Assembly: GCA_013203045.1 (NCBI GenBank)
Contig: JABMQN010000014.1
Coordinates: forward strand, 28,373 to 92,372
Direction of reading: 5' to 3'
Length of the DNA stretch: 64,000 nt
Origin: Chloroflexota bacterium
GTDB taxonomy: Bacteria > Chloroflexota > Dehalococcoidia > SZUA-161 > SpSt-899
Below the pieces are notes generated by a model. It made no database searches. It worked only from the letters and a program-made list of their open reading frames with translations, and was not told where the DNA came from. This document shows, one piece after another, positions 2,622-44,316 of the stretch. How positions within the stretch are numbered: position 1 is the stretch's first letter; every line of letters begins with the position of its first letter. Made by a program: the position numbers and the translations under genes.

Positions 2622-2717
2622 TGTTTCTTGCTATTGAATTTAGTCGAGTTTGATTTGGAGTGCGGCAGTTTAACTGCCGCTTTGTTTGCGGTAGCTAAGG
2701 CTACCGCACTCCAAATT

Positions 2718-4058: not shown

Positions 4059-4072
4059 GTTTCCTCCTAAAG

Positions 4073-16905: not shown

Positions 16906-17703
16906 ATGATCATAGTGGGTGAAAAGATTAACACAAGCCGTAGAATCATAAGAGAAGCGGTTGAAAATCGAGATGCTAACTTCATCATCAAAGTTGCACA
17001 GGATCAGGCGCAAGCCGGCGCAAACTATATTGATGTCAATGCCGGTACCTTTGTGGACAAAGAGATAGAAAATCTCTGCTGGTTAGTCGAAACCGTTCAA
17101 AGTTCACTCGATTATCCACTCTGCCTTGACAGTCCTAATCCAACAGCCTTAGCTGAAGCGATGAAGCTCCACAAAGGCGAACCGATGATAAACTCGATTT
17201 CTATGGAGGAAGACCGGCTTGGTCCCCTTCTGCCCGTGGTTACGTCTGGCCCATGTCAAATAATTGCTTTGTGTATGGGACAAGCCTCGATGCCAATAAC
17301 AGTTGAGGAAAGAGTAGACGTTGGTGCTCAACTCATTCAAAAGCTTACAGGTGAAGGCGTTCCAATTGAAAAAATATTCGTTGATCCGCTAATCCAACCG
17401 ATTTCAGTGGATACCAACATGGGTATTGCCGCACTTGGAGCCATTCGCAAGATAATAGACGATTTCCCCGGAGTAAATACGATCTGCGGCCTATCAAACA
17501 TTTCATTTGGTCTTCCGGAACGCCACATTATCAATCGCAATTTTCTGGCTTTGGCCATGTCGTACGGTTTGTCCGGTGCAATCATGGATCCAACCGATAT
17601 AAAGCTCACGTCTACACTTCTTTCGATTGAAATGCTACTAGGTAGAGATGAATACTGTGAAAAATTCATTGATGCCTATCAGGAAAAGCGAATTTCTGGA
17701 TAA
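16906..17703 (+). CDS. Pterin-binding methyltransferase, methyl-corrinoid:tetrahydrofolate methyltransferase (MtrH/AcsE-like)
   Basis: 265 aa, paralog of 1815-2621. It is the first gene of an operon that also encodes a corrinoid protein and MttB-family proteins. Confidence 0.8.
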   Translation: MIIVGEKINTSRRIIREAVENRDANFIIKVAQDQAQAGANYIDVNAGTFVDKEIENLCWLVETVQSSLDYPLCLDSPNPTALAEAMKLHKGEPMINSISMEEDRLGPLLPVVTSGPCQIIALCMGQASMPITVEERVDVGAQLIQKLTGEGVPIEKIFVDPLIQPISVDTNMGIAALGAIRKIIDDFPGVNTICGLSNISFGLPERHIINRNFLALAMSYGLSGAIMDPTDIKLTSTLLSIEMLLGRDEYCEKFIDAYQEKRISG

Positions 17704-17751
17704 AAGAAGTCTCGCCGGAGTGAAAAGAAATAAGCATAATGGAGGTCGAAA

Positions 17752-18390
17752 ATGAGTGAATTTCAGGCATTATCTGAAGCTGTACTCAAGGGAGACATCA
17801 AGACAGCGGTAGCGGAGACTCAGGCGGCCATGGATGCCGGGGCAAATATCCAGGACATCCTTGACACCGGTCTAATTGCTACCATGGACGAAGTGGGGGA
17901 TAGATTCTCAAAGGGGATTATCTTTGTCCCGCAGATGCTGCGATCGGCTAAAACCATGCAGGAATGCATGAAACTTATCACCCCATTATTCCAAAAGGGT
18001 GGCGTGACCTCCAAAGGGAAAGTGCTTATCGGAACCGTCAAGGGGGACTTGCATGATATTGGCAAGAACCTTGTTTTAATGATGATGGAAGGCGCCGGCT
18101 TTACTATCACAGACCTCGGAGTAGATGTCACTCCTGAAAAATTCGCCCAGAAAACTCAAGAAATCGAGCCTGATATCGTGGCGATGTCCGCACTTCTTTC
18201 AACGACAATGCCATCGATGCCCCTTACTATCGAAGCGCTTCAAAACGCTGGAGTGAGAGACAAAGTGAAAATTATGATCGGTGGAGCTCCTGTTACAGAT
18301 AAATATGCTCAAGAAATCAAAGCAGATGCCTATGCCTCAGATGCCGGTTCAGCAGTAACAAAAGCAAAAAGCTTGATGGGGATTTCCTAA
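17752..18390 (+). CDS. Cobalamin-binding corrinoid protein, MttC/MtbC-like
   Basis: 212 aa with the DxHxxG motif (VKGDLHDIGKNLV). It has a B12-binding cap followed by a Rossmann domain. Confidence 0.9.
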   Translation: MSEFQALSEAVLKGDIKTAVAETQAAMDAGANIQDILDTGLIATMDEVGDRFSKGIIFVPQMLRSAKTMQECMKLITPLFQKGGVTSKGKVLIGTVKGDLHDIGKNLVLMMMEGAGFTITDLGVDVTPEKFAQKTQEIEPDIVAMSALLSTTMPSMPLTIEALQNAGVRDKVKIMIGGAPVTDKYAQEIKADAYASDAGSAVTKAKSLMGIS

Positions 18391-18417
18391 CCTCTTGAAA
18401 GTAAATTCCGCATTGAA

Positions 18418-19878
18418 TTGAGTGAGGAAAACATGAATCCTATCGATATACCTACGTTTCAGCCTCGGTTGAAGGTCTTATCTCGAGAACAGGTTCTGGC
18501 GATCCACACGGCAGCACTGGAAATCCTGGAAAAGACAGGGTTTAGAATGGAGCATCCAGATGCCTTGAAAATGCTTGCGGATGCAGGTTGCAGAGTATCC
18601 GATGATAACTGGGTCAGAATGCCCGGTCATCTTGCTGAACAAGCTCTTAAGTCAGCTCCCAGACAGATTGCGTTACATGATCAGAAGGGTAACAAAACCA
18701 TGCCTCTGGTCGATGGCAATCCCTTCTATGGCACAGGTTCAGACACAACGTTCACACATGACCTCGAAACTGGACAACGGCGCCGCACAGTCCTTCAGGA
18801 TATAGCCAATTTCGCCAAACTGGTTGATGGGTTGGAGAATATTTCGTTTGCCATGTCAATGTCCAATCCGGAAGATGTCCCGATTGAAAATATCTATGTT
18901 TACGCTTTTGCAGAAATTGTTAAAAATACCAACAAACCTATCGTGTTCATATCAGATAGCGGTAAAGACATAGCAAAAATTCATCAGATTGCATGTGCAG
19001 TGGTGGGAGGTGAGGAGGAATTCCGCCGGAAGCCATTTATTCTAAATTATTCCGAAGCAATAAGTCCGCTAAGATTCCCTGAAAACGTAATGGAAAAGCT
19101 TATCTTCTGTGCGCAGAAAAGTATACCGATTTGCTTCCCCTCAGGTTCCAATGCAGGTGGTGGAGCGCCTATTACTCTGGCCGGTGCGATGGCTCTTGGG
19201 ATCGCTGAGAATCTAGTGGGATTAACGGTCCATCAAATGTTCGGTAAAGGGTCTCCGTTCCTATTTGGTCCAAACGTTAGTACGTTGGATATGAAATCGA
19301 CCGTTGTATCTTACGGATGCCCGGAGTGGGCACTAACACAGGCTGCTCTCGCTGATATGCGAGATGAACTCTATGGTTTGCCCATCTGGGCTTATTCAGG
19401 AGCATCGGATGCAAAGGTAATGGATGCTCAGGCTGGTGCAGAGGCCATGTTCTCAATAATTACATCAATGTTATCCCGCTGTAACTTGATCCACGATAAC
19501 GGATACCTCGAGTATGGTGGTATTTCATCACTCGAGATGGTGACGATGGTAAATGAGTTAGTAGCCATGAGCCGCTTCTTTGTCCAGGGGATCCCGGTCA
19601 ACGAGGAAACATTAGCTTTGGAAGCAATTCATCGGGTGGGGAGTGTGCCTGGTTCCATGTTCCTAACGGACGACCATACCTTTGATAATTTTACGCAGGC
19701 TCAGTTCATACCCAAACTTCTGGATCGGTCACGTTACGATACTTGGGAAGAAGAGGGGGCACAGGACTTCTACAAACGTTGTAACGTGGAGGCAAAGAGA
19801 ATTCTTGCTGAACATCAAGTGGAACCTAAATCAGATGAAATACTCCAAGCTATCGATAAAATTGTTCAAGGGGGATAA
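18418..19878 (+). CDS. MttB-superfamily (trimethylamine methyltransferase family) substrate:corrinoid methyltransferase, non-pyrrolysine
   Basis: 486 aa continuous ORF. It has the length and general features of the trimethylamine methyltransferase family and no in-frame TAG. It sits directly downstream of a corrinoid protein. Confidence 0.8.
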   Translation: MSEENMNPIDIPTFQPRLKVLSREQVLAIHTAALEILEKTGFRMEHPDALKMLADAGCRVSDDNWVRMPGHLAEQALKSAPRQIALHDQKGNKTMPLVDGNPFYGTGSDTTFTHDLETGQRRRTVLQDIANFAKLVDGLENISFAMSMSNPEDVPIENIYVYAFAEIVKNTNKPIVFISDSGKDIAKIHQIACAVVGGEEEFRRKPFILNYSEAISPLRFPENVMEKLIFCAQKSIPICFPSGSNAGGGAPITLAGAMALGIAENLVGLTVHQMFGKGSPFLFGPNVSTLDMKSTVVSYGCPEWALTQAALADMRDELYGLPIWAYSGASDAKVMDAQAGAEAMFSIITSMLSRCNLIHDNGYLEYGGISSLEMVTMVNELVAMSRFFVQGIPVNEETLALEAIHRVGSVPGSMFLTDDHTFDNFTQAQFIPKLLDRSRYDTWEEEGAQDFYKRCNVEAKRILAEHQVEPKSDEILQAIDKIVQGG

Positions 19879-19893
19879 CCAAGCGTTTTACTC

Positions 19894-21330
19894 ATGAAGA
19901 AGAGTTCGCCATTTTATCAACCGATTTCTCCTGAACACGTTCAGCAGATCGATCAGAAAGGACGCCGGATACTCGATGAAATCGGTATTTCAATCTCTGA
20001 TAGCACTTTTCGAGAAAGACTCGAAGATGCAGGCGCTCAGGTAGATCATGACAATGGGCGAGTTCGTTTTGGTGGAGACTGTCTCGATCGGCTCTTGAGT
20101 CGAGCCCCCTCTCAATTCATACTTTTCTCACGTGATGGCCGGAATGATATACACCTTGGTGAAGGTCATGTCTATTTTGGCAATGGTGGACGCGTGTTTC
20201 GCATTTTAGATATGAGAACGGGCGGTTATCGTTACACCATGATGCGCGATATTGCCAATACAGCAATTTTAGTAGACCATCTGGACTATATACAGTTTTA
20301 TATCATTGCGTGTCAAGCCCACGACTTGGAAAGAGATAGTTATCATCTAAACGATTTTTATCGGGCTTTTTACCACACTACAAAGCATGTGATGGGCGGT
20401 TGTGATGATACAGATGGCGCCAATCAAATGTGGGAGCTTGCCTGTTTAATAGCAGATGGGGAAGAAAATCTCAGAGAGCGGCCTTTCATATCAGCCATTA
20501 CAAATGTCATTAGCCCACTGACAATCGATACCAATACTCTGCAAATTATTGAATTCTGTACCTCAAAAGGGATTCCAATTACCTGTGCTCCAGCTCCTAT
20601 AGCTGGGGCAACAGCTCCGGCAACACTAGCCGGAACGCTCTCCCAACTTCACGCGGAATCGCTTGCTGGAGTAGCAGTCACTCAGGCCATAACCCCAGGA
20701 GCAAAGATTCTCTATGGTGCAGTTCCTTCTGCCATGGATTTGCGAACGATGGAATACACCATGGGCACAGTCGAAATGGCGATGATGAATGCTGCTGCGG
20801 TTCAATTGGCAAAACTATATGATTTACCAATCTATGCCTCGGCAGGTCTTACCGAATCCAAACGGCCAGATATTCAGGCTGGCTCTGAAAAGCTCTTTTC
20901 CAATTTGACAGTAGCAATGGCCGGAGCCGATTATATCCATCTGGCAGCCGGAATGCTGGATTCCGGTAATTCTATTTCTTACGAACAGTACGTAATTGAT
21001 AACGAAATCATTGGGATGATTCACAGGATACTGTCAGGCATAGAGGTGAACGAAGATACACTTGGGTTTGATGTTATCGAACAGGTTGGACCTGGCGGCA
21101 ACTACGTGTTGGAAGATCATACGGTTGATCATATGATGGATGAGTTCTTCTATCCCAATTTGAGTGTGCGATCCAATTTCGACGTGTGGGAAGAGAAAGG
21201 CAGGCCAGATATGTTGAGCCGCGCTCATGAAATGGTTGATAAAACCTTAAACCATGGTAGGGAAGGCCGGTTGGACCCGCGTTTGATCTCGATGATAAAG
21301 GATACCTTTCCTGCCATAATCAAGATCTAA
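19894..21330 (+). CDS. MttB-superfamily methyltransferase, second tandem paralog, non-pyrrolysine
   Basis: 478 aa. It is similar to 18418-19878 along its whole length, including the shared segments ...GTGSDTT.../...GNGGRVF... and ...YDTWEEEG.../...FDVWEEKG.... Confidence 0.8.
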   Translation: MKKSSPFYQPISPEHVQQIDQKGRRILDEIGISISDSTFRERLEDAGAQVDHDNGRVRFGGDCLDRLLSRAPSQFILFSRDGRNDIHLGEGHVYFGNGGRVFRILDMRTGGYRYTMMRDIANTAILVDHLDYIQFYIIACQAHDLERDSYHLNDFYRAFYHTTKHVMGGCDDTDGANQMWELACLIADGEENLRERPFISAITNVISPLTIDTNTLQIIEFCTSKGIPITCAPAPIAGATAPATLAGTLSQLHAESLAGVAVTQAITPGAKILYGAVPSAMDLRTMEYTMGTVEMAMMNAAAVQLAKLYDLPIYASAGLTESKRPDIQAGSEKLFSNLTVAMAGADYIHLAAGMLDSGNSISYEQYVIDNEIIGMIHRILSGIEVNEDTLGFDVIEQVGPGGNYVLEDHTVDHMMDEFFYPNLSVRSNFDVWEEKGRPDMLSRAHEMVDKTLNHGREGRLDPRLISMIKDTFPAIIKI

Positions 21331-21331
21331 G

Positions 21332-21949
21332 ATGTCTTCACCCGAAGAGACCAGAGAGCCTGTACGCATCATTGCTTGTGGTGTATTTAAGCCTGCACTA
21401 CGGCATCTTCACTTGGAAGATCGTTACCCCAATGTTCGAGTTACATTCCTGCCCTCAGTGTTACATCTAAGGCCACCAGATCTAAGGAACTTCTTGCGCA
21501 AAGAGATTCAATCTGCCCACCAACGCAACGAACGGGTCATATGCCTCTATGGGGATTGTTTTCCCGATATTGATGACTTCTGTGATCAATATGACGTAAC
21601 AAAAGTACCCGGAGCTTATTGTTACGAGATGTTTCTCGGACCAAAACGTTTCAAGCAGCTTTTAGATGAAACCGCTGGAACATATTTCATGGAGAAAGAC
21701 CTCATAATGAATTTCGAGCAACATTGCCTGATTCCTTTGGAACTCCATGATAAAACAATGAGGGAATACTGTTTTGAACACTATAAGAAACTGTTGTATG
21801 TACGGCAACCGGCCGATCCTGACCTAGAATCACAGGCAAATGAAATAGCTGATTTCCTTGAATTGGCACTGGATGTCAAAGATGCCGATTATTCTTTTCT
21901 TGAAAATAAACTTGATGAGTTGATAAAATCTAAATCTTCTCAAAAATGA
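21332..21949 (+). CDS. DUF1638 domain protein
   Basis: 205 aa, paralog of 1153-1818 (RIIACGVFKPAL versus FITCGALGQEV; ...VICLYGDC... versus ...LVVVYGECG...). It is translationally coupled to the upstream MttB paralog, with a 1-nt gap. Confidence 0.65.
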   Translation: MSSPEETREPVRIIACGVFKPALRHLHLEDRYPNVRVTFLPSVLHLRPPDLRNFLRKEIQSAHQRNERVICLYGDCFPDIDDFCDQYDVTKVPGAYCYEMFLGPKRFKQLLDETAGTYFMEKDLIMNFEQHCLIPLELHDKTMREYCFEHYKKLLYVRQPADPDLESQANEIADFLELALDVKDADYSFLENKLDELIKSKSSQK

Positions 21950-22001
21950 ATACTTCACACCATCTTTATCGGCACCTTCAACTCGTGCAAGGGCTATTAG
22001 A

Positions 22002-24332
22002 ATGAAAGAGTCTCACAATCCAAAGGCCAGAAAAAAGAGAACTGAATACATTTGGCTGAATGTTTTACCGGATGACCTCTGGTTGAATGTCCGTAGAGGA
22101 GATACGCTCTTCGATGTGTTACAAGAGGCCGGTATCGAATTGGATGCTGATTGTGGCGGATTGGGGAAATGCGGTAAATGCAAGGTCAGAATTCTCACTT
22201 CAATTAAGCCTCCATCCTCAGATGAGGAAGGGTTTCTCAACCAAGAAGAAATCGATCAGGGTGTTCGCCTTGCCTGCCGCACCCAGATTAATAGCGATAT
22301 GGTTGTTCAAGTAGGTGAAACCGAGATTGGCACTGAATATGTGCAGATTCTGAAATCAGGTCATCGGCCACTCTTCCAATTGGATCCTCTTGTCAAAAAA
22401 CAATTTATTACATTGGCTACCCATCACAAAGACGAGGGACTTTCTGACTTCGATAGAATAAAACTGGCAATGGGACCCGACTACCTGGATATGACTGCCT
22501 CACTGAGTTGCCTACGTACGTTACCTCAATCAATGAAAGAAACTGAAGCTCATGGAGCAGCGGTCCTTCATGAAAAGCATTTGTTAGATTGGCAAGGTTG
22601 GGGGAAACTGGCATATGGTTATGGGTTGGTCTTTGATCTTGGTACCACAACTTTAGTTGGCAAGCTCATCGACCTTTCTGATGGCACAGAAGTGGCTGTT
22701 ATTTCTCGGCTCAACGGACAAATCAGGTATGGATCAGATATAATCAGTCGGCTCCAATATGTTAAAGATAATCCCAATGGCCTCGCGCGACTTCATAATC
22801 TTCTCATAGGAAATCTTAATAGAATTACCAGGCGCCTTGTAGAAGTGGGAGGTTTAGTTACCAATGACATCTTTATCGCTGTTGCAGCCGGTAATACTAT
22901 TATGTTGCATCTTCTCCTTGGTCTACCTCCCGACGGAATAGCGGAAGCCCCATTTGCACCGGTGCTTAGTGACGGTATGACCATAAAGGCATCAGACATC
23001 GATCTACAGCTACACCCGGAAGCTCTGCTCTACACCATGCCAATGAAATCAGGCTATATCGGCGGGGATTTGATTAGTGTCATTCTCGCTTCCGGAGCTA
23101 CTGAACAGGAAGATAAAATCATTCTTGGACTAGATCTCGGTACTAACGGGGAGATTTTTTTAGGAAACCGCAAGAGATTGATGACTTGTTCCGCGGCAGC
23201 AGGACCCGCTCTGGAAGGTGCAAGAATTTCCTCAGGGATGATAGCCAAAGACGGAGCAATCGAGGCAGTAGGATTCGAAAAAGGAAATCTCCAATATCGT
23301 GATATTGCCAATATCAAGCCTAAAGGGCTCTGCGGTAGTGGACTTGTAGATTTGATAGCAGTACTTCTACAGCTCGGAATTATCGATGAGGAAGGGTTAA
23401 TCACCACTCCTAGGATGAGCATAGCACAGGGCTTGGCTCCAAAGGTAATCAATAAAAATGGTGTTAATAATTTTCTTGTAGCTCCCGCTGAAGAAAGCTA
23501 TGATGACAAACCCATATTTTTAACTCAGCAGGATGTCCGCGAATTGCAACTTGCCAAAGCGGCTGTCGCTGCTGGTATAGCAACTCTCATGGACGAAATG
23601 GGAATTGGGGTTGAGGACATCGATCAAGTTTATATGGCCGGAGCGCTTGGCAACTACGTCAACCCACACAGTGCAATTCGCATTGGGCTTATTCCTAGAA
23701 TAGATACTGACAAGATCACATCGTTGGGAAACGCGGCCAGCACCGGTGCATCCATGGCGCTATTATCCAAATTTTACTGGCAAATGGCCAACGAGCTTAT
23801 AGACTTCATTGAACACATTGAACTTTCTTCACGGCTTGACTTCAATGAATACTATGTTGAGCACATGGATTTCACCAGAGAAGAGCCTCTTGATGTTCAT
23901 CATGAAGAAGTGGAAAATGTCATGAAAACCATAGCGGTAGGTTCAGTAATGACTCGCGACTTTCCTGCGATGAGCTCCACTATGCTGGCCAGAGAGATTG
24001 CCAATATGTCACGCGATACGGGCCACCACGGATTCCCGGTTGTTGATGAGGAAGGACACCTGGTGGGGGTTGTCACACTCGCAGACCTGGCAAGTTGCTT
24101 GCGAGCCGGAAACGCTGATCTCCCAGTGGGTGATATTGTCACCAAGTTCCCTTTGGTAGCTTTTCCGGACCAGTCATTGTATGAAGTTCTAACCGCCACT
24201 GATGAAGACTACGGACGCATCCCGGTTGTTTCCAGAGAAGACGAAGGCCACTTGCTTGGGGTGCTACGGCGCCAGGACATTATCCGTGCCTATCGCAACA
24301 AACTTGCAAAATTTGTACAGGCAGAAGCATAA
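22002..24332 (+). CDS. RACo-type corrinoid reductive activase (2Fe-2S ferredoxin plus ASKHA ATPase) fused to a C-terminal tandem CBS pair
   Basis: 776 aa. It has an N-terminal ferredoxin motif DADCGGLGKCGKCKV...C. The core is colinear with the 632-aa RACo at 11378-13276 (shared segments include DLGTTT.., ..AGNT.MLHLLLGL.., ..GTNGE.. and ..AAAGPA.EGA.I..GM). The last ~140 aa form two CBS motifs (VMTRDFPAMSS...GFPVVDEEGHLVGVVTLADL; FPLVAFPDQSLYEV...RIPVVSREDEGHLLGVLRRQDI). Confidence 0.8.
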   Translation: MKESHNPKARKKRTEYIWLNVLPDDLWLNVRRGDTLFDVLQEAGIELDADCGGLGKCGKCKVRILTSIKPPSSDEEGFLNQEEIDQGVRLACRTQINSDMVVQVGETEIGTEYVQILKSGHRPLFQLDPLVKKQFITLATHHKDEGLSDFDRIKLAMGPDYLDMTASLSCLRTLPQSMKETEAHGAAVLHEKHLLDWQGWGKLAYGYGLVFDLGTTTLVGKLIDLSDGTEVAVISRLNGQIRYGSDIISRLQYVKDNPNGLARLHNLLIGNLNRITRRLVEVGGLVTNDIFIAVAAGNTIMLHLLLGLPPDGIAEAPFAPVLSDGMTIKASDIDLQLHPEALLYTMPMKSGYIGGDLISVILASGATEQEDKIILGLDLGTNGEIFLGNRKRLMTCSAAAGPALEGARISSGMIAKDGAIEAVGFEKGNLQYRDIANIKPKGLCGSGLVDLIAVLLQLGIIDEEGLITTPRMSIAQGLAPKVINKNGVNNFLVAPAEESYDDKPIFLTQQDVRELQLAKAAVAAGIATLMDEMGIGVEDIDQVYMAGALGNYVNPHSAIRIGLIPRIDTDKITSLGNAASTGASMALLSKFYWQMANELIDFIEHIELSSRLDFNEYYVEHMDFTREEPLDVHHEEVENVMKTIAVGSVMTRDFPAMSSTMLAREIANMSRDTGHHGFPVVDEEGHLVGVVTLADLASCLRAGNADLPVGDIVTKFPLVAFPDQSLYEVLTATDEDYGRIPVVSREDEGHLLGVLRRQDIIRAYRNKLAKFVQAEA

Positions 24333-37605: not shown

Positions 37606-38265
37606 TTATGGGATGATTTCTACGGATCCGTTATGGACCTCATAACCAGCCATCTCTTTGAAATCATGGTCGGTCAGCATTAAATCCCCAATAGTAAGAT
37701 CATAGGGTCTGATTCCAGCCGAATTCACTACTTGCAGACTGAATGTGGATAAAATCCCACTCGAGTCAGTAACATCCGTCATACCCTTCCGAGCGATAGC
37801 AAAGCGAACTTTACCAGCCGTGTTATCAATACTTTTAGTCCCGATGAGGGGATCGACACCAAGCAGGTCACCCGATACTACATCGATTAATTGAAACACC
37901 GTCGGATCAAATTCCAAAACTACTTCACAACCGCTAACTCCAGACCCTGTCAAGTTTGCCACCAGGTTTACGCTGATCTCTTCACCGGACCGAGTTTCAC
38001 TGTATTGGGGATCAATGTAAATGCCTGAGATGGGAACGACTGGCGTTTGGCTTACTTCAGGTGGTGTTTGCGGTAAAGGAGGTTGAACATCTTCTGGTGT
38101 TGGTACTACTGGAGGTGTTGATGATACCCCTTCAGAGGCAGATGTTGAGACTAAAGTGTCCGTTGTTCCATCCCAACCAGTGACTCCCACGAATACAGCA
38201 CAAGCTAAAAGCACCATAGCCATTAGTGATAGAATTATCTTTGCCGCGCGTGTTTGAAGTATCAA
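37606..38265 (-). CDS. Membrane-anchored cohesin-domain protein
   Basis: 219 aa. It has an N-terminal signal-anchor (AAKIILSLMAMVLLACAVFVGV) and a Pro/Thr-rich linker. A roughly 140-aa beta-sandwich domain follows, with cohesin-like segments (...EEISVNLVANLTG...KVRFAIARKG...) homologous to the cohesin-like domain of the upstream gene. Its start overlaps the upstream stop by 4 nt. Confidence 0.5.
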   Translation of the reverse strand: MILQTRAAKIILSLMAMVLLACAVFVGVTGWDGTTDTLVSTSASEGVSSTPPVVPTPEDVQPPLPQTPPEVSQTPVVPISGIYIDPQYSETRSGEEISVNLVANLTGSGVSGCEVVLEFDPTVFQLIDVVSGDLLGVDPLIGTKSIDNTAGKVRFAIARKGMTDVTDSSGILSTFSLQVVNSAGIRPYDLTIGDLMLTDHDFKEMAGYEVHNGSVEIIP

Positions 38266-39734
38266 ACCTGATTCTCCTGAAGACCCCAGTTACCAGCAAG
38301 TATAGCCAGGTCGCCGAGATCTACTTCATTGTTTGAATTGAGATCGGCATCGGCACGAAAATCGGTCGCTCCGGTAGTTGTTCCATATGCAGATGCTAAA
38401 ATAGCAAGATCCGCCAATCCCACACTCTCATCGCCATTCAAGTCGCCTGGCAGACTGTTGCCCACAACTTTGATGGATACAGTTGGCGGATCAAAATCGA
38501 GATTCTTGAAATTCTCGTCAGTCAGGATAATTGCATTAGGTATGGCATATCTGCCCGCTTTGGCACCACCTTTAATGCGGAGTCCAATCACAGCAAATGT
38601 CCCTGTACTGGCAGGAACAGGCGTTTCACCTTTACGAGCAATTGCATATTCGAGATTCTCACTACTACCGGTATCGGATTTATTTTTCTTGCCCTCGATA
38701 GGGTCCGATCCTAGGAGTGTTCCAGGCTTCACTTTATCCAGAAGCACCTCAATGACATCAGAATCAAGTGAAAGGAGATCAATCTCACCTCCGCTTATGC
38801 CATGACCATTGGGATCGACAGTTACAGTCAGCGTAAACTCGTCTCCCGGCTCCAGCTCCTGTGCAGAAAGGCTAACCGTCACTCCAGGAGGGCCGGTGGT
38901 TATTGCGTTCAAAGGGGCCTGCCTATTTCCACCTCTCACCCAGACCGCGGTCTCTTTGGCCGCCTGCCCCGCTACTTTGAAAGACATTACCTTTCCGGTG
39001 TAATCTCCCGGAATATTAAGCGCGTAGGTGCCGGAACCGCTACTGGTGTTCTGCACTTTTAATCCGTCGATCCATGCCGAGACATCAGTGCCGGTAGGCA
39101 CAGAACTACCATTAAGCGTCACGGTACCGTAGAAACCACAGATAAGGGGCCCCAGACTCACTACCAGATTTGTTTCAATTGCCTCACCCCTCTGCCACTC
39201 AATGATCTGGGTAGCGAAATGGGCATCGACTTTGAATGCCACCGCCTTCCCGGTATAGTTTCCCGGTACTACCAGGCTATACATAGAATCGACAGTGGTG
39301 GTAGTCTGTACTTTGGCTGAATCTATCCATGCGGAAATTTCTGTGCCATCGTCCACATATTGTCCATCTACAGTTACCTGGCCATAGAATTCGCACTGGA
39401 AGGGCCATGAATTTATGCTCAGATTGACTGTAATAGTCTCTCCTCTGGTCCAGGTGCCTGTCTGTTCTGCTTCATACTTACCTACCTTGAAAGCCACTGT
39501 TTTTTCCGAATAATCCCCGTGTATAAATAGAGAATATTCTGAGTTCTCCGTCTCGGTATCGGCCACTTTTTCCCCATTAATCCATGCCGAAATTACAGTA
39601 CCATTCGGTAAGCTGTTTCCCCCGGCAACAACCGTCCCCTGAAAACCACCGGTCATTGGTTGTGCCGAGATGACACCAGTAAACAGCAACATCGCTAATA
39701 CCACTATTAAAAGGACATGTATCAATTTAGACAT
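38262..39734 (-). CDS. Secreted protein: signal peptide, three CarboxypepD_reg-like repeats, a cohesin-like domain, and a C-terminal type I dockerin
   Basis: A likely start is the ATG at 39734 (MSKLIHVLLIVVLAMLLFTGVISAQP signal peptide, GAGGA ribosome-binding site). It has three repeats of about 80 aa (G.V..G...V..GT.ISAWI...KV......Y.L..PG.YTGK...FKV). The cohesin-like domain carries ...LEYAIARKG.... The C-terminus has two calcium-binding dockerin segments, DLNGDESVGLADLAILASAYG and DLNSNNEVDLGDLAILAGNWG. Confidence 0.6.
   Translation of the reverse strand: MSKLIHVLLIVVLAMLLFTGVISAQPMTGGFQGTVVAGGNSLPNGTVISAWINGEKVADTETENSEYSLFIHGDYSEKTVAFKVGKYEAEQTGTWTRGETITVNLSINSWPFQCEFYGQVTVDGQYVDDGTEISAWIDSAKVQTTTTVDSMYSLVVPGNYTGKAVAFKVDAHFATQIIEWQRGEAIETNLVVSLGPLICGFYGTVTLNGSSVPTGTDVSAWIDGLKVQNTSSGSGTYALNIPGDYTGKVMSFKVAGQAAKETAVWVRGGNRQAPLNAITTGPPGVTVSLSAQELEPGDEFTLTVTVDPNGHGISGGEIDLLSLDSDVIEVLLDKVKPGTLLGSDPIEGKKNKSDTGSSENLEYAIARKGETPVPASTGTFAVIGLRIKGGAKAGRYAIPNAIILTDENFKNLDFDPPTVSIKVVGNSLPGDLNGDESVGLADLAILASAYGTTTGATDFRADADLNSNNEVDLGDLAILAGNWGLQENQV
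38830..39600. repeat. Three tandem in-frame repeats of about 240 nt inside the 38262-39734 gene
   Basis: The DNA encoding the three CarboxypepD_reg-like modules is repeated, for example the recurring GCATGGAT...GGAAAGG / GTAGTACCGGGAAACTATACCGG-like segments. Boundaries are approximate. Confidence 0.5.
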
Positions 39735-39867
39735 AGCGATCCTCACATCGGGATAAACGAAAATACCCCAAACTGATGGTAGCATGCATACTTATGTGAG
39801 GAAAACGTGGACTACACCAATTTTATGGTGGGGGTGAACGACCAGCTTGAAGGTAATATAGGGTAAC

Positions 39868-42800
39868 TTACTTCTGAATTCTTGGGAGAATATCCCGAAT
39901 ATAGTCGTCTGAAGCTAGGTCCAAATGTGGAACTGATTTAGTGGAAATCTTGGATAACTCTGTGAAAAATTCGTCTTCTATTGACTGTTTTGCCTCCACA
40001 TCTTTCCCTTCGACCCTGCAAATGATCATCGGTTGAGTATTTGACTTACGCACCAGAGCCTGGCCTAACCATTGGCTATCATTATCAAACCATTTAATTA
40101 GACCGCCATCGGTTGTATATATCGTATATCCCATTTCCCGAAAGCGCTGAACTGCCACATCCACCACTTCTTGTTTCTCATCCAAAACATTGACCTTCAG
40201 ACGAATGTTCAATTCCGGCGTGGCCGGGTATCGTGGTACCGCTTCATCAATATCGATGAAACTCTTACCTTCTCTCAATCCATTGGCAACAACAGTGAGT
40301 AGTTTTATCGCTGCTAGTGCGGCATCATCAAATATCCAATTCTCTTCGTGCCCCGACATCTGATGTCCGGAAAGCTCGGCGGCAAGGGCAATCGGTTCTT
40401 TGTTATCACTCAAGTCAATTCTCTTACCGAAGAGTTCAATTTCATTCGATCCTTCCTGTAACGCTTGTACCAGCGCCTTTGTACCATCTTTAATAAAGGC
40501 AAATCCGGTGGGGCTGGTTATGTACTCCCCGCCATTGGAAGTGATACACTCTTCGGCAATACGGGAGAACTTCACTTCGCCCATGAATCGCGGCTTTCCA
40601 GGCTTCCCCATCTTTTTATGCTCATCAATTATGCATTGAGCCTGTATGGCCAATGTTCGATCACCTTCTACGACTCGCCCGTCTTTCCTGACATAAATAA
40701 CCCGATCTGCATCTTCATCATTGCCAATCCCAATTACTTCTTTGGAACTATCAGCAGCTTCCTTGATTACTGCTTCCTCAAGCTGTTTCCGATACTTGGC
40801 CTTGATCGGGTCCGGGATATGAGCAGGGAAATATCCATCCGGAGTTTCGTTGATTGCCACAACCTCAGCTCCGAGATCAGTAAAAATCCCCTTGGTTCTC
40901 CATCCCGAACCGTTACCAAAATCTATAACGACTTTCAAACCTTCCAAAGGATGCTGTATCGCGGTTTCTGGTTGCTCCAGATTCGAAGGTAGGTCCAGAG
41001 CTTTTAATATTTCGCCCCACTTATCTTTGTTCAACTGTGCAGGAAATTTAATGCCTGAAGTGATGTCAAGAAGTTCCTTCAGCCCCCGGTTTTCCCATCT
41101 CTCCCGCAATTGTATCCATATCTCCCTTCCCAGACGGCAATTGGCCTTGACCAGTTCATTGTGATATCGAACCACCTCGCCTTCTTCAAGCTTGATACAT
41201 TTCCCTTCACCTTCCAGGAAATCGCCCTCAAGCACAGATTTCTTAATTTCGAGCATCTGTTCAGCGTTTATACTGATGATAAAACCGTCCTCAGTACGAA
41301 TCACCTGTTTGAGGCCGTTGTACTCTGCCTCATTATGACTGGCAGTCATGTTTATTCCACCATCGGCTTTCAAATAGGGAATAGAGAAATAGAGCTCAGG
41401 CGTCGATGTAATGCCGACGTCATACACATTGACCCCAGTCGAGAGAATTCCCGTGGTTACCCATTCACGGACTCTCTTTGTTGAAAGCCTGATGCCTCCT
41501 CCAATAGTAACCCAAAGCTTTCCCGAGTCTGCGTTATTAATCCTTCGGAGAAAAGTTCCATATCCTTTTCCCAGGTAGTAACAAACCCTATCAGACAGAT
41601 ACTCATCGGCAACAGCACGCACGTCATACGTCTGAAAGATCACCGGGTCAATTTGCTGGGGTTGGAGAACAAAGGATTTCAGGAGTATTGAATCTTTACT
41701 CGCCGTTATCTTATACTCTCCCATCATAGCTGGAACCAGCACCGATTCACCACGGGAAATTTTATCCTTTAAACCTCTCCGCGATAGCTCCATCTCCCCT
41801 TTCAGACATGTGAGCACCTGGAATGCACCATTCGTATTTGCGGGGATTTTGTCTCCATTTGCCAACTTGATACGATCAAGAGAGAAATAGAAGCTGTCTA
41901 TCAGGCGTTCTTCCTTTTCATTGAGGCTCTTGGGAATCAACCGATAGTCTGACTTTTCAGTCTTTTGGAAATTTAGCGATTCTATCGCCTGAGGTATATG
42001 GAGTTGCCTTTTAGGAACTCGATTCCAATCCCAAACGCGGTAGGTAATTCCAGAGGATTGCTGAATTTCGGCCAAAAACACACCTTTACCGACGGCGTGG
42101 ACTGCTCCTGCAGGATTGAACAGTACATCTCCAACTTGAGCCGGTATTCCGTTCAGATATTTCTCAGCGATATTGATGTCAGGAGAAGACAGATCTTTTT
42201 CGAACTCAGACACATTGACGTCGTTCTTAAATCCTAAATAAAGGACGGCTCCAGGCTCTGCATCGAGTATCAACCATGCCTCGGTTTTCCCGGAGTCGAC
42301 CTCACCTAATTCCGATGCTTTTTCGTCAGATGGGTGAACCTGAACTGAGAGGTCCTCTCGCGCATCGAGGAATTTTACAAGTATTGGGAGCAATCCTTTG
42401 AAATCTCTTGCGATACCCCGTCCGAGGATATCCTCCCCAAGGTGATTCACCAAATCATTTAAGGGAATCTTGGAACCATTAGGAAACGTGACAATGGAGG
42501 GATGTTGGTGATGAGTGGAGCATTCCCATGACTCTCCGATTGTCTTGCCGGAGGGGGGCAATCCCTTGAGCTTTTCTATATGGTCTCCTCCCCATACTGT
42601 TTGTACCAGATTGTCAATGGCAGGTTTGATGAAGCTGCGTTTTATACCCTTGAGAATTTCAGGTAGTTTACTCCGGTTTTCGTAATAAACCATCCACTTA
42701 TTTTTCTCAGACGAAAAAACAGATTCTGGTTTGCTTCCCACAATTCTTCCCAAAGCTTCGAAGGAATACGGATTCCCCAGAATTGTGATTTCCCAATCAT

Positions 42801-44205
42801 CTTTGCCGTCACGATTGAGACCTGTCCTCATCCGCGTCCGGCCATTTGAGGGCAGGAAAATATCAGCAACTACTTCACTAGGGCTCGGCTTCAAAGTGTT
42901 TAGATCAACGCAGTTATAGATGAGGCTTTCTTCAGCGTTTACTTCTGAGAGAGAACTCCCAACAATCACAGAGTCAACCACGTCTAACTTATCGGCATTT
43001 ACAGCCATTAACACGCTGTTCTTCACTTTCCCTTTGGCATCGGTATTTACAACTATAGAATTTTCAACGGTGAGATCATTTTCTTTGGAGTTTCTTATCC
43101 AGTGTTTCTCAAGATCATAGAACTTCCTTAGACATTCACCTTCCGATGAATCTTCCAGCAGTTTAAGGAAATTCTGGTGGTAAAGGCGAACCTGTCCATA
43201 ATCCCACCATAGCGTGTTCGTTCCGATATCCTTATCTCCAAACAGTTTTAACCCTAGTTTTTCTCGATCCAGGAATCTTTGTTTGAACGCGTCTATCCGA
43301 TCCCAATGAACCGAATCACCTCCCCTGGCGGTGAAATCGTCAAAACTTGAGGTAAGCGGCATCCAAAGATGAGGATCGGTATCCATCTTACCCTGCTTCT
43401 TTCCCAGGTCAGAGCCAAACTCTTCCAGCATAGCTGCGAGGAATTCCTGTGTAATAGAGAAGCTCCCAAGGCTTTTACCAAGAGACATTTTGCCAGCCTT
43501 ATTTGATTGCACGATACCTTCTGCAATCAGCCTTTTCAGATCCTCCCAGCTTTGCTTTTCTCTCTGCAACGCTTCGCCACTTGAAGTCGGAATTACAAGT
43601 CCATAGCTCTGCCAATCGGTTCTCCAGGTTTCTGCATCAGCAGGAATTTCGGATTTAATATCAAGTATCTCAGCATGATGGGATCGGGAACAATCCGCTA
43701 ATTTTGAAGGGATAAAAACCTGATCACCCCAGAATACACACAGTCTTCCGGGACGAGTATCAGCAAAAATACCCGTTTGGAATATGACAGCCTCAAGAAT
43801 TGTCATGGGGACTTTTTCGCGATTGACGTAGATCAATCGGGGTAGTTTTATGGCAGATTTGTTGTTGGCTTCTGAAGCAGGGATCGGAGCCATGCGAGTA
43901 CCTTTGCCGGCAGTATGGTACATTGCAATGCTACGCCCATCTTTGAGCATCTGCATTAAGTTGAGGTTAGTTTTTGCTTTTTGCCACGCATACAGCGTAC
44001 CTAGCAGTTGGCCTGCTCCACCGGGCCAATCCTCTTCCACAGAGATAACTTGTGTGTTACGGCTAATTACGGATCCACGTGTAGCTTCTAGCCTCCTCTG
44101 CCAGAATCTCGCCTGATCTCCACTGGAAGAAACTATAATCACTACATCAAAACCACGGTTGCCTTCAACTGCAGCATACATGTCTTTGATATTCTGTTTA
44201 TGCAT
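39868..44205 (-). CDS. Tri-domain fusion: N-terminal NDP-sugar pyrophosphorylase-like domain (fucose-1-P guanylyltransferase-like) + type I phosphomannose isomerase + phosphomannomutase/phosphoglucomutase
   Basis: 1445 aa. N-terminal ~540 aa: nucleotidyltransferase-like, with a glycine-rich YHTAGKGTRMAPIP loop. Middle: type I phosphomannose isomerase zinc ligands in LSVQVHPSD, KTEAWLILDA and PAGAVHAVGKG. C-terminal ~520 aa: alpha-D-phosphohexomutase motifs TASHNEAEYNG (catalytic serine), GIGNDEDADR (Mg loop) and SGHQMSGHEE (sugar-binding loop). Confidence 0.75.
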   Translation of the reverse strand: MHKQNIKDMYAAVEGNRGFDVVIIVSSSGDQARFWQRRLEATRGSVISRNTQVISVEEDWPGGAGQLLGTLYAWQKAKTNLNLMQMLKDGRSIAMYHTAGKGTRMAPIPASEANNKSAIKLPRLIYVNREKVPMTILEAVIFQTGIFADTRPGRLCVFWGDQVFIPSKLADCSRSHHAEILDIKSEIPADAETWRTDWQSYGLVIPTSSGEALQREKQSWEDLKRLIAEGIVQSNKAGKMSLGKSLGSFSITQEFLAAMLEEFGSDLGKKQGKMDTDPHLWMPLTSSFDDFTARGGDSVHWDRIDAFKQRFLDREKLGLKLFGDKDIGTNTLWWDYGQVRLYHQNFLKLLEDSSEGECLRKFYDLEKHWIRNSKENDLTVENSIVVNTDAKGKVKNSVLMAVNADKLDVVDSVIVGSSLSEVNAEESLIYNCVDLNTLKPSPSEVVADIFLPSNGRTRMRTGLNRDGKDDWEITILGNPYSFEALGRIVGSKPESVFSSEKNKWMVYYENRSKLPEILKGIKRSFIKPAIDNLVQTVWGGDHIEKLKGLPPSGKTIGESWECSTHHQHPSIVTFPNGSKIPLNDLVNHLGEDILGRGIARDFKGLLPILVKFLDAREDLSVQVHPSDEKASELGEVDSGKTEAWLILDAEPGAVLYLGFKNDVNVSEFEKDLSSPDINIAEKYLNGIPAQVGDVLFNPAGAVHAVGKGVFLAEIQQSSGITYRVWDWNRVPKRQLHIPQAIESLNFQKTEKSDYRLIPKSLNEKEERLIDSFYFSLDRIKLANGDKIPANTNGAFQVLTCLKGEMELSRRGLKDKISRGESVLVPAMMGEYKITASKDSILLKSFVLQPQQIDPVIFQTYDVRAVADEYLSDRVCYYLGKGYGTFLRRINNADSGKLWVTIGGGIRLSTKRVREWVTTGILSTGVNVYDVGITSTPELYFSIPYLKADGGINMTASHNEAEYNGLKQVIRTEDGFIISINAEQMLEIKKSVLEGDFLEGEGKCIKLEEGEVVRYHNELVKANCRLGREIWIQLRERWENRGLKELLDITSGIKFPAQLNKDKWGEILKALDLPSNLEQPETAIQHPLEGLKVVIDFGNGSGWRTKGIFTDLGAEVVAINETPDGYFPAHIPDPIKAKYRKQLEEAVIKEAADSSKEVIGIGNDEDADRVIYVRKDGRVVEGDRTLAIQAQCIIDEHKKMGKPGKPRFMGEVKFSRIAEECITSNGGEYITSPTGFAFIKDGTKALVQALQEGSNEIELFGKRIDLSDNKEPIALAAELSGHQMSGHEENWIFDDAALAAIKLLTVVANGLREGKSFIDIDEAVPRYPATPELNIRLKVNVLDEKQEVVDVAVQRFREMGYTIYTTDGGLIKWFDNDSQWLGQALVRKSNTQPMIICRVEGKDVEAKQSIEDEFFTELSKISTKSVPHLDLASDDYIRDILPRIQK

Positions 44206-44275
44206 AGTTAAACCTCGTATTTTGCGATATTATAGCGCAGTCAGATAAGTAAACGCAATCAGTAAATCGTCCCAG

Positions 44276-44316
44276 AAAAACAAAAAAGAGGGGGCATGTA
44301 CCCCCTCTTTTTTTGA
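44276..44316 (-). terminator. Intrinsic (bidirectional) terminator downstream of the carboxyltransferase gene
   Basis: AAAAAAGAGGGGGCATGTACCCCCTCTTTTTTT has a perfect 9-bp GC-rich stem flanked by an A-tract and a T-tract. It lies immediately 3' of the 44338 stop. Confidence 0.8.

Follow-up and report, generated by a model that had tools for sequence, protein, structure and literature searches.

The window, a stretch of 64,000 nt from contig JABMQN010000014.1 of a Chloroflexota bacterium (GCA_013203045.1), carries on its minus strand a single uninterrupted ORF running from ATG to stop at 39868..44205 (stop codon at 39868-39870). It codes for one polypeptide of 1445 aa, as the sequence-only reading had proposed without naming the strand, and the product is identical to P0121, 'hypothetical protein HQ553_01940 [Chloroflexi bacterium]'. 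Along the chain, an N-terminal domain (N-domain) is followed by a type I phosphomannose isomerase (PMI) and an alpha-D-phosphohexomutase of the PMM/PGM type, which is the order transferase-isomerase-mutase if the activity proposed below for the N-domain is accepted. A putative RBS GAGG (44213-44216) is located 7 nt ahead of the ATG (44205) and a putative -10 box TATAAT at 44229-44234, both consensus matches read off the minus strand at 44213..44234. An intrinsic-terminator-like hairpin (44282..44313, minus strand), with a 14-bp stem including six G-C pairs and then a T tract, closes the upstream carboxyltransferase gene, which suggests that the fusion gene may be transcribed alone.

A search for homologous fusions in related genomes, proposed with the sequence-only reading, returned 16 collinear protein clusters (15 besides the window protein) with 48-100% identity from Dehalococcoidia, Desulfobacterales, and Syntropharchaeia. 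They come from NCBI, JGI, ENA, and Logan assemblies and represent many independent MAG and single-cell genomes (AH-958 isolates), archaea included, and no catalytic residue of the three modules varies over the 16 clusters. In split relatives from Dehalococcoidia (L012, L018, and L036), the N-domain gene ends at the linker position and a PMI-PMM gene with its own RBS begins 12-21 bp on.

The middle domain, aa 524-835 (41701..42636, minus strand), is a type I PMI of the short bacterial/archaeal type. Pfam models PMI_typeI_cat PF20511 (536-635) and MPI_cupin_dom PF21621 (770-835) matched above their gathering scores, and NCBIfam TIGR00218 manA scored 131 bits (cutoff 116). The PDB relatives are 1zx5 (2e-31) and 1qwr (7e-27), with QVHP, TEAW, and VHA aligned. 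The zinc ligands Q622/H624 (QVHP), E642 (TEAW), and H703 (VHAVG) are all invariant among the 16 fusions, so the earlier assignment of this domain from its zinc-ligand motifs holds. Short type I PMIs of Bacillus subtilis (1qwr) and Archaeoglobus fulgidus (1zx5) share the cupin domain of about 310 aa and the Q/H, E, H ligands, but here the PMI lies inside a longer chain.

The phosphohexomutase occupies aa 851-1445 (39871..41655, minus strand), with Pfam PGM_PMM_I-IV spanning residues 856-1414 above gathering scores. Catalytic Ser956 (TASHN), the Mg loop D1163-x-D1165-x-D1167-R, the sugar loop E1277-L-S-G-H, and the phosphate loop R1386-K-S-N-T were identified; these TASHN, DxDxDR, ELSGH, and RxSNT loops align with PDB relatives 1wqa (8e-43) and Pseudomonas aeruginosa PMM/PGM 1k35 (5e-36) and are invariant among the 16 fusions. 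The serine, magnesium, and sugar loops reported from the letters alone are thus confirmed by Pfam, structural relatives, and residues. In the NCBIfam equivalog models the mutase domain stayed under every cutoff; therefore, the sequence does not settle the sugar specificity, and PGM or GlcN-P mutase activity would be compatible. The four-domain layout with Ser loop, DxDxDR, E-x-S-G-H, and R-x-S-x-T is common to Pyrococcus horikoshii PH0923 (1wqa) and P. aeruginosa AlgC (1k35), but the mutase of the fusion, besides being joined to a PMI, has a helical insertion of about 100 aa between domains I and II (aa 990-1087; 40945..41238, minus strand) and a smaller one in domain III. The large insertion is strongly conserved and missing from 1wqa and 1k35; its residues invariant in the 16 fusions include Y1014, H1015, N1016, R1024, R1027, W1030, and W1037. 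It is predicted as three helices (pLDDT 75-93) within a mediocre surrounding model, and it was seen solely in mutases fused or adjacent to the N-domain in the Dehalococcoidia/Desulfobacterales/Syntropharchaeia lineage.

The N-terminal part is about 495 aa followed by a linker of about 28 aa (aa 496-523; 42637..42720, minus strand; pLDDT <50 from residue 499 on), and not a domain of about 540 aa as first estimated. These 495 aa had zero sequence matches in Pfam, NCBIfam, and PDB; Pfam matched 0 of 55 family members, and a family profile found nothing in PDB. The Fucokinase or NTP_transferase Pfam matches expected in the sequence-only reading, which had counted their failure against its assignment, were absent. 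When the family was aligned to canonical NTP_transferases in hhalign, the probability was a non-significant 0.4-3%, and the only aligned stretch was the glycine-rich loop (A/G-G-x-G-x-R-M/F-x-P). The AF2 model of the N-domain (pLDDT 92.4, pTM 0.91) found its best Foldseek matches in PDB in the GDP-fucose pyrophosphorylase of Bacteroides FKP (9iit/9iis; E 2.6e-12, TM 0.54-0.56, about 490 columns). ADP-glucose pyrophosphorylases were second-best, followed by eIF2B, VTC1, and RmlA, and all matches below FKP are sugar-1-P nucleotidyltransferases or their eIF2B relatives. Model, Foldseek, and conservation place a Rossmann-like nucleotidyltransferase core, with the proposed mannose-1-P guanylyltransferase active site, at aa 1-365 (43111..44205, minus strand). 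In the model, a left-handed beta-helix-like C-terminal subdomain with capping helix follows at aa 366-495 (42721..43110, minus strand); short beta strands run through residues 369-462, and a homologue carries the name 'LbetaH domain-containing protein'.

The loop HTAGKGTRMAP, already recognized in the sequence-only reading, was located at residues 97-107 (43885..43917, minus strand) as a putative (pyro)phosphate-binding loop. In 338 homologues, which span many bacterial phyla as well as archaea and protists, G100 and P107 never vary (338/338), and E58, H97, G100, G102, R104, K116, D161, Y201-G202, and K217 are each at least 97% conserved. They run in the same order as H73, G75, G76, R80, K89, D136, H168-G169, and Q186-K187 of FKP (PMC11982464), a mapping made by order and spacing and not by superposition. 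On this mapping, the loop would correspond to H73-x-G75-G76-x-S78-x-R80 of FKP, and acidic E58 after strand beta2 may sit where FKP has its guanine-binding D31 (PMC11982464). The view of the N-terminus as an FPGT-like nucleotidyltransferase is therefore backed by predicted fold, loop motif, and near-invariant G-x-G-x-R, K, D, and (E)K residues, but not by domain databases. The N-domain is best read as a new family of known fold, so far unannotated and widespread, with a predicted sugar-nucleotide-forming role.

This family has about 1000 representatives at 50% identity in bacteria, archaea, and a few protists, and the majority are stand-alone proteins of about 500 aa. Fusion architectures are N-PMI-PMM, N-PMI, PMM-N, and N-PMM with another mutase subfamily; in Omnitrophota, an N-PGM_PMM core is part of giant proteins. 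The PMI and PMM partners vary in order and in subfamily, and the fusions arose independently and recurrently. At 70 reference-genome loci with a complete N-domain gene, PMI and/or PMM were fused or adjacent in 30 (split N | PMI-PMM pairs and PMM-N | long-type PMI included), while at the other 40 neither was present within 10 kb. In one locus (L026), gmd (TIGR01472, 581 bits), fcl (515 bits), and the fusion orthologue form an operon-like row on one strand, with gmd-fcl directly upstream, an arrangement that indicates GDP-mannose as the product. In L073 and L057, a bona fide gmd gene is within about 2.4 kb and 4.5 kb of the N-domain gene, respectively; in L063 a gmd-like stretch was detected by tblastn only, and a gmd remnant lies upstream in L007. 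A Parcubacteria row of GH38 alpha-mannosidase, N-domain, and ROK kinase is a further mannose link. Canonical NTP_transferase genes occur near some stand-alone members (L001 and L005); therefore, the family need not replace ManC.

Taken together, the fusion is probably a trifunctional enzyme for the complete route from fructose-6-phosphate to GDP-mannose, its transferase being a mannose-1-P guanylyltransferase of a new family of known fold. The earlier pathway logic, fructose-6-P to an NDP-mannose, is strongly backed by the recurrent independent fusions and adjacencies with PMI and PMM and by gmd-fcl upstream of the orthologue.

It is unlikely that the N-domain serves another nucleotide or hexose-1-phosphate, giving ADP-, UDP-, CDP-, or dTDP-mannose, or GDP- or ADP-glucose with the mutase acting as phosphoglucomutase. 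Such a role would suit the second-best structural matches, a mutase not assignable to PMM or PGM by sequence, and the PMM-N fusions and 40 of 70 loci without a nearby PMI. However, many lineages have a fused or neighbouring PMI, which serves mannose metabolism only; a fusion orthologue is directly preceded by the GDP-mannose-using gmd and fcl, with gmd near other members; the closest fold match is a GDP-sugar enzyme; and invariant E58 may be the counterpart of the guanine-binding residue of FKP.

A true GDP-L-fucose pyrophosphorylase of the salvage route, linked to mannose genes by chance, is very unlikely. FKP-GFPP is the top structural match and gmd plus fcl make a fucose-metabolism neighbourhood, but PF07959, the model by which GFPPs are defined (PMC12732313), matched neither the window protein nor the 55 relatives. 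No GHMP fucokinase was found in Pfam annotations of eight N-domain neighbourhoods or among ten annotated recurrent neighbour families, and the repeated independent fusions are to PMI and PMM, suppliers of mannose-1-P and not of fucose-1-P. Also very unlikely is a catalytically dead module that regulates, scaffolds, or oligomerises the PMI-PMM part in the manner of eIF2B subunits, GMPPA, or AGPase large subunits: the structural matches do include eIF2B subunits, and the beta-helix of this fold is often an oligomerisation domain, but the glycine-rich loop, K116, D161, and K217 are conserved at the level given above across many bacterial phyla, archaea, and protists, and most members stand alone with no partner to regulate. 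An artefact in which mis-assembly or sequencing frameshifts joined three adjacent genes, left as an equal option by the sequence-only reading, is rejected as having a negligible chance. One wrong base could conceivably join the closely spaced gene pairs of relatives, but the 16 full-length clusters derive from independent sources, the linker is a coding stretch and no read-through spacer, and every junction aligns without frame change.

As a probable GDP-mannose-forming enzyme, the N-domain resembles GFPP/FPGT, the N-terminal half of Bacteroides fragilis FKP (9iit, 9iis; PF07959), in its size of about 500 aa, nucleotidyltransferase core plus beta-helix (a layout shared by AGPases), glycine-rich loop after an additional beta-alpha-beta unit, about 75-100 residues into the chain, and key-residue order H-x-G-G-x-x-x-R, K, D, aromatic/His-G, (Q/E)-K. 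Both products would be GDP-sugars, and the GDP-fucose made by GFPP has the same absolute anomeric configuration as GDP-alpha-D-mannose. They differ in sequence (10-11% identity, no PF07959 match), in partners (PMI and PMM versus GHMP fucokinase), and in the sugar, presumably mannose-1-P versus fucose-1-P. Canonical GDP-mannose pyrophosphorylases with a nucleotidyltransferase and LbH (GMPPB/VTC1 8yre; archaeal ST0452-type) and ADP-glucose pyrophosphorylases (3brk, 1yp3) belong to the same fold class with the G-x-G-T-R-(L/M)-x-P signature, and two-metal sugar-1-P nucleotidylyl transfer is proposed in common, but their structural scores are lower (TMq 0.26-0.36), sequence homology is not detectable, and their glycine loop is at the extreme N-terminus. 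ManC/AlgA/XanB (type II PMI/GDP-mannose pyrophosphorylase; PF00483 + PF01050 MannoseP_isomer) likewise unite isomerase and mannose-1-P guanylyltransferase, here a predicted activity, in one polypeptide. Unlike these enzymes, the fusion has a type I isomerase (PF20511/PF21621) and a transferase outside PF00483, and its order transferase-isomerase-mutase includes the mutase step; to our knowledge, the mutase is always a separate protein (ManB/AlgC) in known PMI/GDP-mannose pyrophosphorylase systems.

In the proposed route, the zinc-dependent PMI would convert fructose-6-P to mannose-6-P, and the phosphoserine/Mg2+ mutase would turn this into alpha-mannose-1-P via a 1,6-bisphosphate intermediate. 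We infer that the FPGT/FKP-type N-domain (aa 1-495) is catalytic and forms GDP-mannose by moving GMP from GTP onto mannose-1-P, with release of pyrophosphate; GTP is deduced from a handful of gmd neighbourhoods, about three of them independent. The G-x-G-x-R loop and K116 would contact the leaving pyrophosphate, D161 may serve Mg2+ and K217 the sugar phosphate, and intermediates may be channelled between the active sites. GDP-mannose would then enter glycan synthesis, directly or via GDP-fucose, for example for surface-layer glycoproteins of the wall-less Dehalococcoidia, and the fusion would be a new variant of a known pathway.

The fusion gene lies on the minus strand at 39868-44205 and encodes 1445 aa from ATG to stop with no interruption, with the coordinates and length given by the sequence-only reading; the ORFs overlapping it in other frames are short ones only. 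Its sequence is 100% identical to that of a protein encoded on a 94-kb MAG contig and deposited as 'hypothetical protein HQ553_01940 [Chloroflexi bacterium]'. It consists of an N-terminal domain (N-domain, aa 1-495), a type I phosphomannose isomerase (PMI, aa ~524-835), and a phosphohexomutase of the PMM/PGM type (aa ~851-1445), and is probably a trifunctional GDP-mannose synthase; the main uncertainty of this prediction is the N-domain, because its activity and specificity rest on prediction. A terminator-like hairpin, a perfect palindrome with a 14-bp stem, is located at 44282-44313 at the end of the upstream carboxyltransferase gene and before the fusion gene. Runs of A and T flank it on both sides, and terminator scoring recognizes it on either strand. 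Between the hairpin and the ATG there are a putative TATAAT box and then a putative GAGG ribosome-binding site, and the fusion gene is predicted to have expression signals of its own.

A search with the full protein found 16 clusters of collinear fusions, 1332-1482 aa long, with query coverage of 99-100% and identity from 100 down to 48%. The assemblies are from NCBI, JGI, ENA, and Logan, and the hosts are Dehalococcoidia and Ca. Syntropharchaeia archaea. The fusions can be aligned over their full length with mean column identity of 66%, and the catalytic residues of the three modules are invariant. More fusions were found by genome scan in further MAGs, in single-cell genomes (AH-958 isolates), and in Desulfobacterales. 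The alternative raised together with the original proposal, that three adjacent genes were collapsed by an assembly or frameshift artefact, is rejected, since the same collinear fusion recurs in 16 clusters from independent assemblies, archaeal ones included. In three Dehalococcoidia genomes (loci L012, L018, L036) these modules are split between two genes: the first, for the N-domain, ends where the window protein has its linker, and the second, for PMI-PMM (927-960 aa), starts 12-21 bp further on, after an RBS-like spacer. The carboxyltransferase gene upstream at L012, L018, L010, and L021 is of the same family as the upstream gene in the window. Given the matching modules of the split loci and these shared upstream genes, the fused and split forms are orthologous natural variants.

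The PMI domain was recognized by Pfam models PF20511 (PMI_typeI_cat, aa 536-635, 38.3 bits against a cutoff of 22) and PF21621 (MPI_cupin_dom, aa 770-835, 33.5 bits against 27), and by NCBIfam model TIGR00218 (manA, class I) with 131.4 bits against the curated cutoff of 116.2. Its zinc ligands Q622 and H624 (QVHP), E642 (TEAW), and H703 (VHAVG) align with those of 1qwr and 1zx5 and are invariant across the 16 fusions. The phosphohexomutase contains PF02878, PF02879, PF02880, and PF00408 in this order at aa 856-1414, each above the Pfam gathering cutoff. Four loops, TASHN (Ser956), D1163-E-D-A-D-R (D1163/D1165/D1167), E1277-L-S-G-H (1277-1281), and R1386-K-S-N-T (1386-1390), align with Pyrococcus horikoshii 1wqa and Pseudomonas aeruginosa PMM/PGM (2h4l) and are likewise invariant in the 16 fusions. 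The type I isomerase with all its zinc-ligand motifs and the mutase with its catalytic-serine, magnesium, and sugar loops, both noticed earlier from the sequence alone, are thus confirmed by profiles and solved structures. The mutase scored below every NCBIfam equivalog cutoff, PgmG (NF046027), CpsG (NF011943), and PRK09542 among the models; the best scores were 201.8 bits for TIGR03990 (cutoff 439) and 183 bits for PgmG (cutoff 600). That it acts as a PMM is inferred from its being fused to a PMI.

Between domains I and II of the mutase there is an insertion of about 100 aa (aa ~990-1087; 40945-41238, minus strand). It is strongly conserved in the fusion alignment and predicted to form three helices, in a model of the mutase domain that is mediocre overall (pLDDT 69). 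The insertion was restricted to mutases that are fused to the N-domain or encoded next to it, in the Dehalococcoidia/Desulfobacterales/Syntropharchaeia lineage, and one possibility is that it represents a domain-domain interface in the fusion.

For the N-domain, matches to the Fucokinase or NTP_transferase models of Pfam had been expected, and these are absent. There was no match in Pfam at E<=10, none in NCBIfam when the full protein was searched, and none in PDB with phmmer or with a profile of 55 sequences; each of the 55 relatives, searched against Pfam at E<=1, was also without a match. PF07959, the model that defines GFPPs (PMC12732313), is therefore absent from the N-domain (E<=10) and from the 55 relatives (E<=1), as are PF00483 and PF12804. 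When the family profile was compared in hhalign with two canonical NTP_transferases from the neighbourhoods of loci L005 and L001, the probabilities were 0.4% and 3.1%, and the glycine-rich loop alone aligned, not significantly.

An AlphaFold model computed from the 55-sequence alignment has pLDDT 92.4 and pTM 0.91. In this model, a Rossmann-like alpha/beta core spans aa ~1-365, residues 369-462 form a series of short strands as in a beta-helix, and the linker is disordered from residue 499. In Foldseek against PDB, the GDP-fucose pyrophosphorylase half (GFPP/FPGT) of FKP, a bifunctional Bacteroides enzyme, was the top match (9iit_A, E 2.6e-12; 9iis, E 4.4e-12), with TMq 0.54-0.56 over about 490 columns and 10-11% identity. 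ADP-glucose pyrophosphorylases, eIF2B subunits, GDP-mannose pyrophosphorylase VTC1, ST0452, and RmlA followed, and all significant matches are sugar-1-phosphate nucleotidyltransferases or their derivatives. The layout of the predicted model, a nucleotidyltransferase core with N-terminal extension and a beta-helix, is that of the FPGT fold. The resemblance to FPGT suspected from the sequence is therefore seen in the predicted fold and not in the domain databases.

In FKP, D31 contacts N1 and N2 of guanine; H73, G75, G76, S78, R79/R80, and K89 contact the phosphates; D136 binds Mg2+; and H168-G169 and Q186-K187 follow, K187 being catalytic (PMC11982464). The N-domain family has E58, H97, A99-G100, G102, R104, K116, D161, Y201-G202, and E216-K217 in the same order and with similar spacing, on which a residue-by-residue correspondence may be drawn. 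These residues are 97-100% conserved in 338 distinct family sequences, with the exception of E216 (87% E, 10% D). The canonical nucleotidyltransferase signature G-x-G-(T/S)-R-(L/M)-x-P ... K with a Mg-binding Asp behind a central strand is also present, as A99-G100-K-G102-T-R104-M-A-P107 ... K116 and D161, each conserved at >=97% in the same 338 sequences.

Among 1.84 billion representatives, searched exhaustively by profile, 1077 proteins matched at E<=1e-3, 334 of them at E<=1e-30. Most are stand-alone 'hypothetical proteins' of ~470-540 aa. Hosts found in the genome scan are Dehalococcoidia/Chloroflexota, Desulfobacterales, Patescibacteria, Omnitrophota, Latescibacterota, Lentisphaeria, Verrucomicrobia, Kiritimatiellia, Planctomycetes, and environmental Chlamydiae, and among archaea Pacearchaeota, Methanobacteriota, and Halobacteriota. 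Eukaryotic members were found in Ancoracysta twista, Breviolum minutum, and marine metagenome or metatranscriptome data (P0110, P0151, P0153, P0154, P0157). Some eukaryotic gene models join the N-domain to ArfGAP/PH, EF-hands, or HSP90, and these are probably gene-model chimeras. The joint occurrence in eukaryotes and environmental Chlamydiae could be a hint of lateral transfer.

Besides N-PMI-PMM, the architectures include N-PMI (~800-850 aa), PMM-N (~1000-1040 aa) with a mutase of a different subfamily carrying a TGSHIPDDRNG loop, and N-linker-PMM (1232 aa). Giant proteins P0232 (2869 aa), P0233 (3111 aa), and P0266 (3246 aa) of Omnitrophota and Planctomycetia (loci L079, 7358-16084, and L075, 8864-14215) have the N-domain followed by a phosphohexomutase in mid-protein, with flanks of about 860 and about 780 aa that gave no Pfam match. 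P0268 (Omnitrophota, 1421 aa, partial) combines the N-domain with a transaldolase/fructose-6-phosphate aldolase domain, which is another tie to fructose-6-phosphate metabolism. No GHMP kinase was fused to the N-domain in any architecture seen, and GHMP fucokinase was absent from the Pfam annotations of eight neighbourhoods and of ten annotated recurrent neighbour families.

For the neighbourhood analysis, ORFs were called in all loci and then clustered, and the 80 loci most similar to the query were kept. PMI and/or PMM was fused or in an adjoining gene at 30 of the 70 genome-scan loci with a complete gene, a fraction that is indicative only, because it comes from this best-80 sample and because the greedy ORF caller fails at high GC (mis-called loci L057 and L063), so linkage counts are lower bounds. 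About 1-2% would be expected by chance for one or two genes within 10 kb. In Lentisphaeria (L050), PMM-N is followed by a long-type, E. coli-like PMI, and in Desulfobacterales and Proteobacteria a PMI gene follows the N-domain gene. Two Parcubacteria loci (L002, 4212-9613; L003, 987-6388) encode a GH38 alpha-mannosidase, a stand-alone N-domain, and a ROK sugar kinase, then PEP synthase; the first three look like a mannoside or mannose salvage module. Recurrent neighbours in Chlamydiae and Patescibacteria (HtrA-type protease, peptidases, NIF3-like, and DUF763 proteins) were rejected as functional partners, as they reflect lineage synteny. The neighbourhoods of P0090, P0113, P0030, P0135, and P0139 gave no information on function.

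The nucleotide is more probably GTP. In a Desulfobacterales MAG (L026), gmd (TIGR01472, 581 bits, cutoff 415), fcl for GDP-L-fucose synthase (515 bits, cutoff 500), a 68-bp spacer with GGAGG, and a triple fusion follow each other on one strand; the last has an ATG and 1197 uninterrupted codons up to the contig end. If the fusion makes GDP-mannose, these genes cover the whole route from fructose-6-phosphate to GDP-L-fucose, and the arrangement is qualitatively strong evidence on the nucleotide. On a related contig (L007) a 101-aa N-terminal remnant of gmd (7657-7962) ends 38 bp before the triple fusion; the remnant shares 95% identity with the intact gmd of L026, which suggests that this relative has lost gmd-fcl by deletion. 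A bona fide gmd is also present at L073, ~2.4 kb from an N-domain and PMI gene pair, and at L057, where its distance to the N-domain gene is ~4.5 kb and GT4-type glycosyltransferase-like genes, none at an NCBIfam cutoff, are nearby. L063 gave a gmd-like tblastn match only, and the ORF tested there had no NCBIfam match. With about three independent cases against ~0.6 expected by chance, the gmd linkage is suggestive rather than conclusive. GTP would also agree with the best match of the predicted fold being a GDP-sugar enzyme, and with an invariant acidic residue, E58, which would take the place of D31, the guanine-binding residue of FKP.

Among about 40 ORFs scanned around the fusion gene in the window, there was no glycosyltransferase, canonical NTP_transferase, or GDP-sugar enzyme, and the window context is thus silent on the fate of the product. 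Two secreted-looking proteins with cohesin/dockerin domains are encoded directly downstream on the same strand (37606-39785, minus). They may be cell-surface proteins, and a tie to glycosylation is speculative. The window has G+C content of ~46%, and apart from these genes it contains housekeeping genes and clusters for corrinoid methyltransferases of the kind typical of subsurface Dehalococcoidia. Two corrinoid-dependent clusters, at 1153-4708 (minus) and 16906-24332 (plus), encode an MtmB-like protein, two MttB-family proteins, B12-binding corrinoid proteins, pterin-binding methyltransferases, DUF1638, and two RACo reductive activators, one with CBS domains; RACo genes are also located at 11378-13276. 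This content suggests demethylation of methylamine or quaternary amines.

In the proposed pathway, the Zn2+-dependent type I PMI would convert fructose-6-phosphate to mannose-6-phosphate, and the Mg2+-dependent phosphoserine mutase would convert this through a 1,6-bisphosphate to mannose-1-phosphate; both steps are predicted from family membership and intact active sites. The N-domain would then form GDP-mannose and PPi from mannose-1-phosphate by two-metal nucleotidylyl transfer as described for its fold (PMC11982464), to which the predicted fold, residue conservation, and gene fusion and neighbourhood point. The earlier proposal of three-step NDP-mannose synthesis in one protein is in this way supported as the probable reading, with the N-domain function predicted. 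Substrate channelling is possible; in bifunctional FKP the authors saw no tunnel (PMC11982464). Marine Dehalococcoidia are without peptidoglycan, are thought to glycosylate surface-layer proteins, and have gmd and fcl (PMC4959651). Supply of surface glycans is a plausible role of the fusion.

Neither PF00483 nor PF01050 (MannoseP_isomer) was found in the fusion protein by Pfam. ManC, AlgA, and XanB combine a PF00483 transferase and a type II PMI in one protein, and the mutase is separate, whereas the window fusion has a type I PMI and includes the mutase. The N-domain shares the G-loop, Lys, and Asp signature with canonical PF00483 transferases but not a Pfam sequence match; its predicted fold resembles that of FPGT/GFPP, but it has no PF07959 match and no fucokinase partner. 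No description of a trifunctional PMI/PMM/GMP enzyme, a non-canonical GDP-mannose pyrophosphorylase, or the N-domain family was found in the literature. The pathway itself is well known; new are the three-step fusion architecture and, as the model suggests, an unannotated family within the sugar-1-phosphate nucleotidyltransferase fold.

A wider reading, rather doubtful when its parts are taken jointly, is that the N-domain represents a third, unrecognised lineage of mannose-1-phosphate guanylyltransferases with FPGT-like fold; that many uncultivated groups (Dehalococcoidia, Patescibacteria, Omnitrophota, environmental Chlamydiae and other PVC bacteria, and several archaea) and some protists obtain their GDP-mannose mainly or exclusively through it; and that the mutase insertion helps to assemble three active sites, which would lead from fructose-6-phosphate to GDP-mannose without release of intermediates.

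If the N-domain is a mannose-1-phosphate guanylyltransferase, about a thousand clusters of many bacterial and archaeal lineages and a few eukaryotes, now 'hypothetical protein', would obtain a function. The fusion would be the first reported natural single polypeptide that leads from a glycolytic intermediate through all three steps to GDP-mannose. It would also be a compact part for making GDP-mannose, GDP-fucose, and products that carry fucose or mannose, either enzymatically or in cells. The FPGT fold would reach beyond fucose salvage, and metabolic reconstructions of candidate phyla, Dehalococcoidia, and environmental Chlamydiae could be re-examined where steps of GDP-mannose, GDP-fucose, or glycan biosynthesis seem to be missing.
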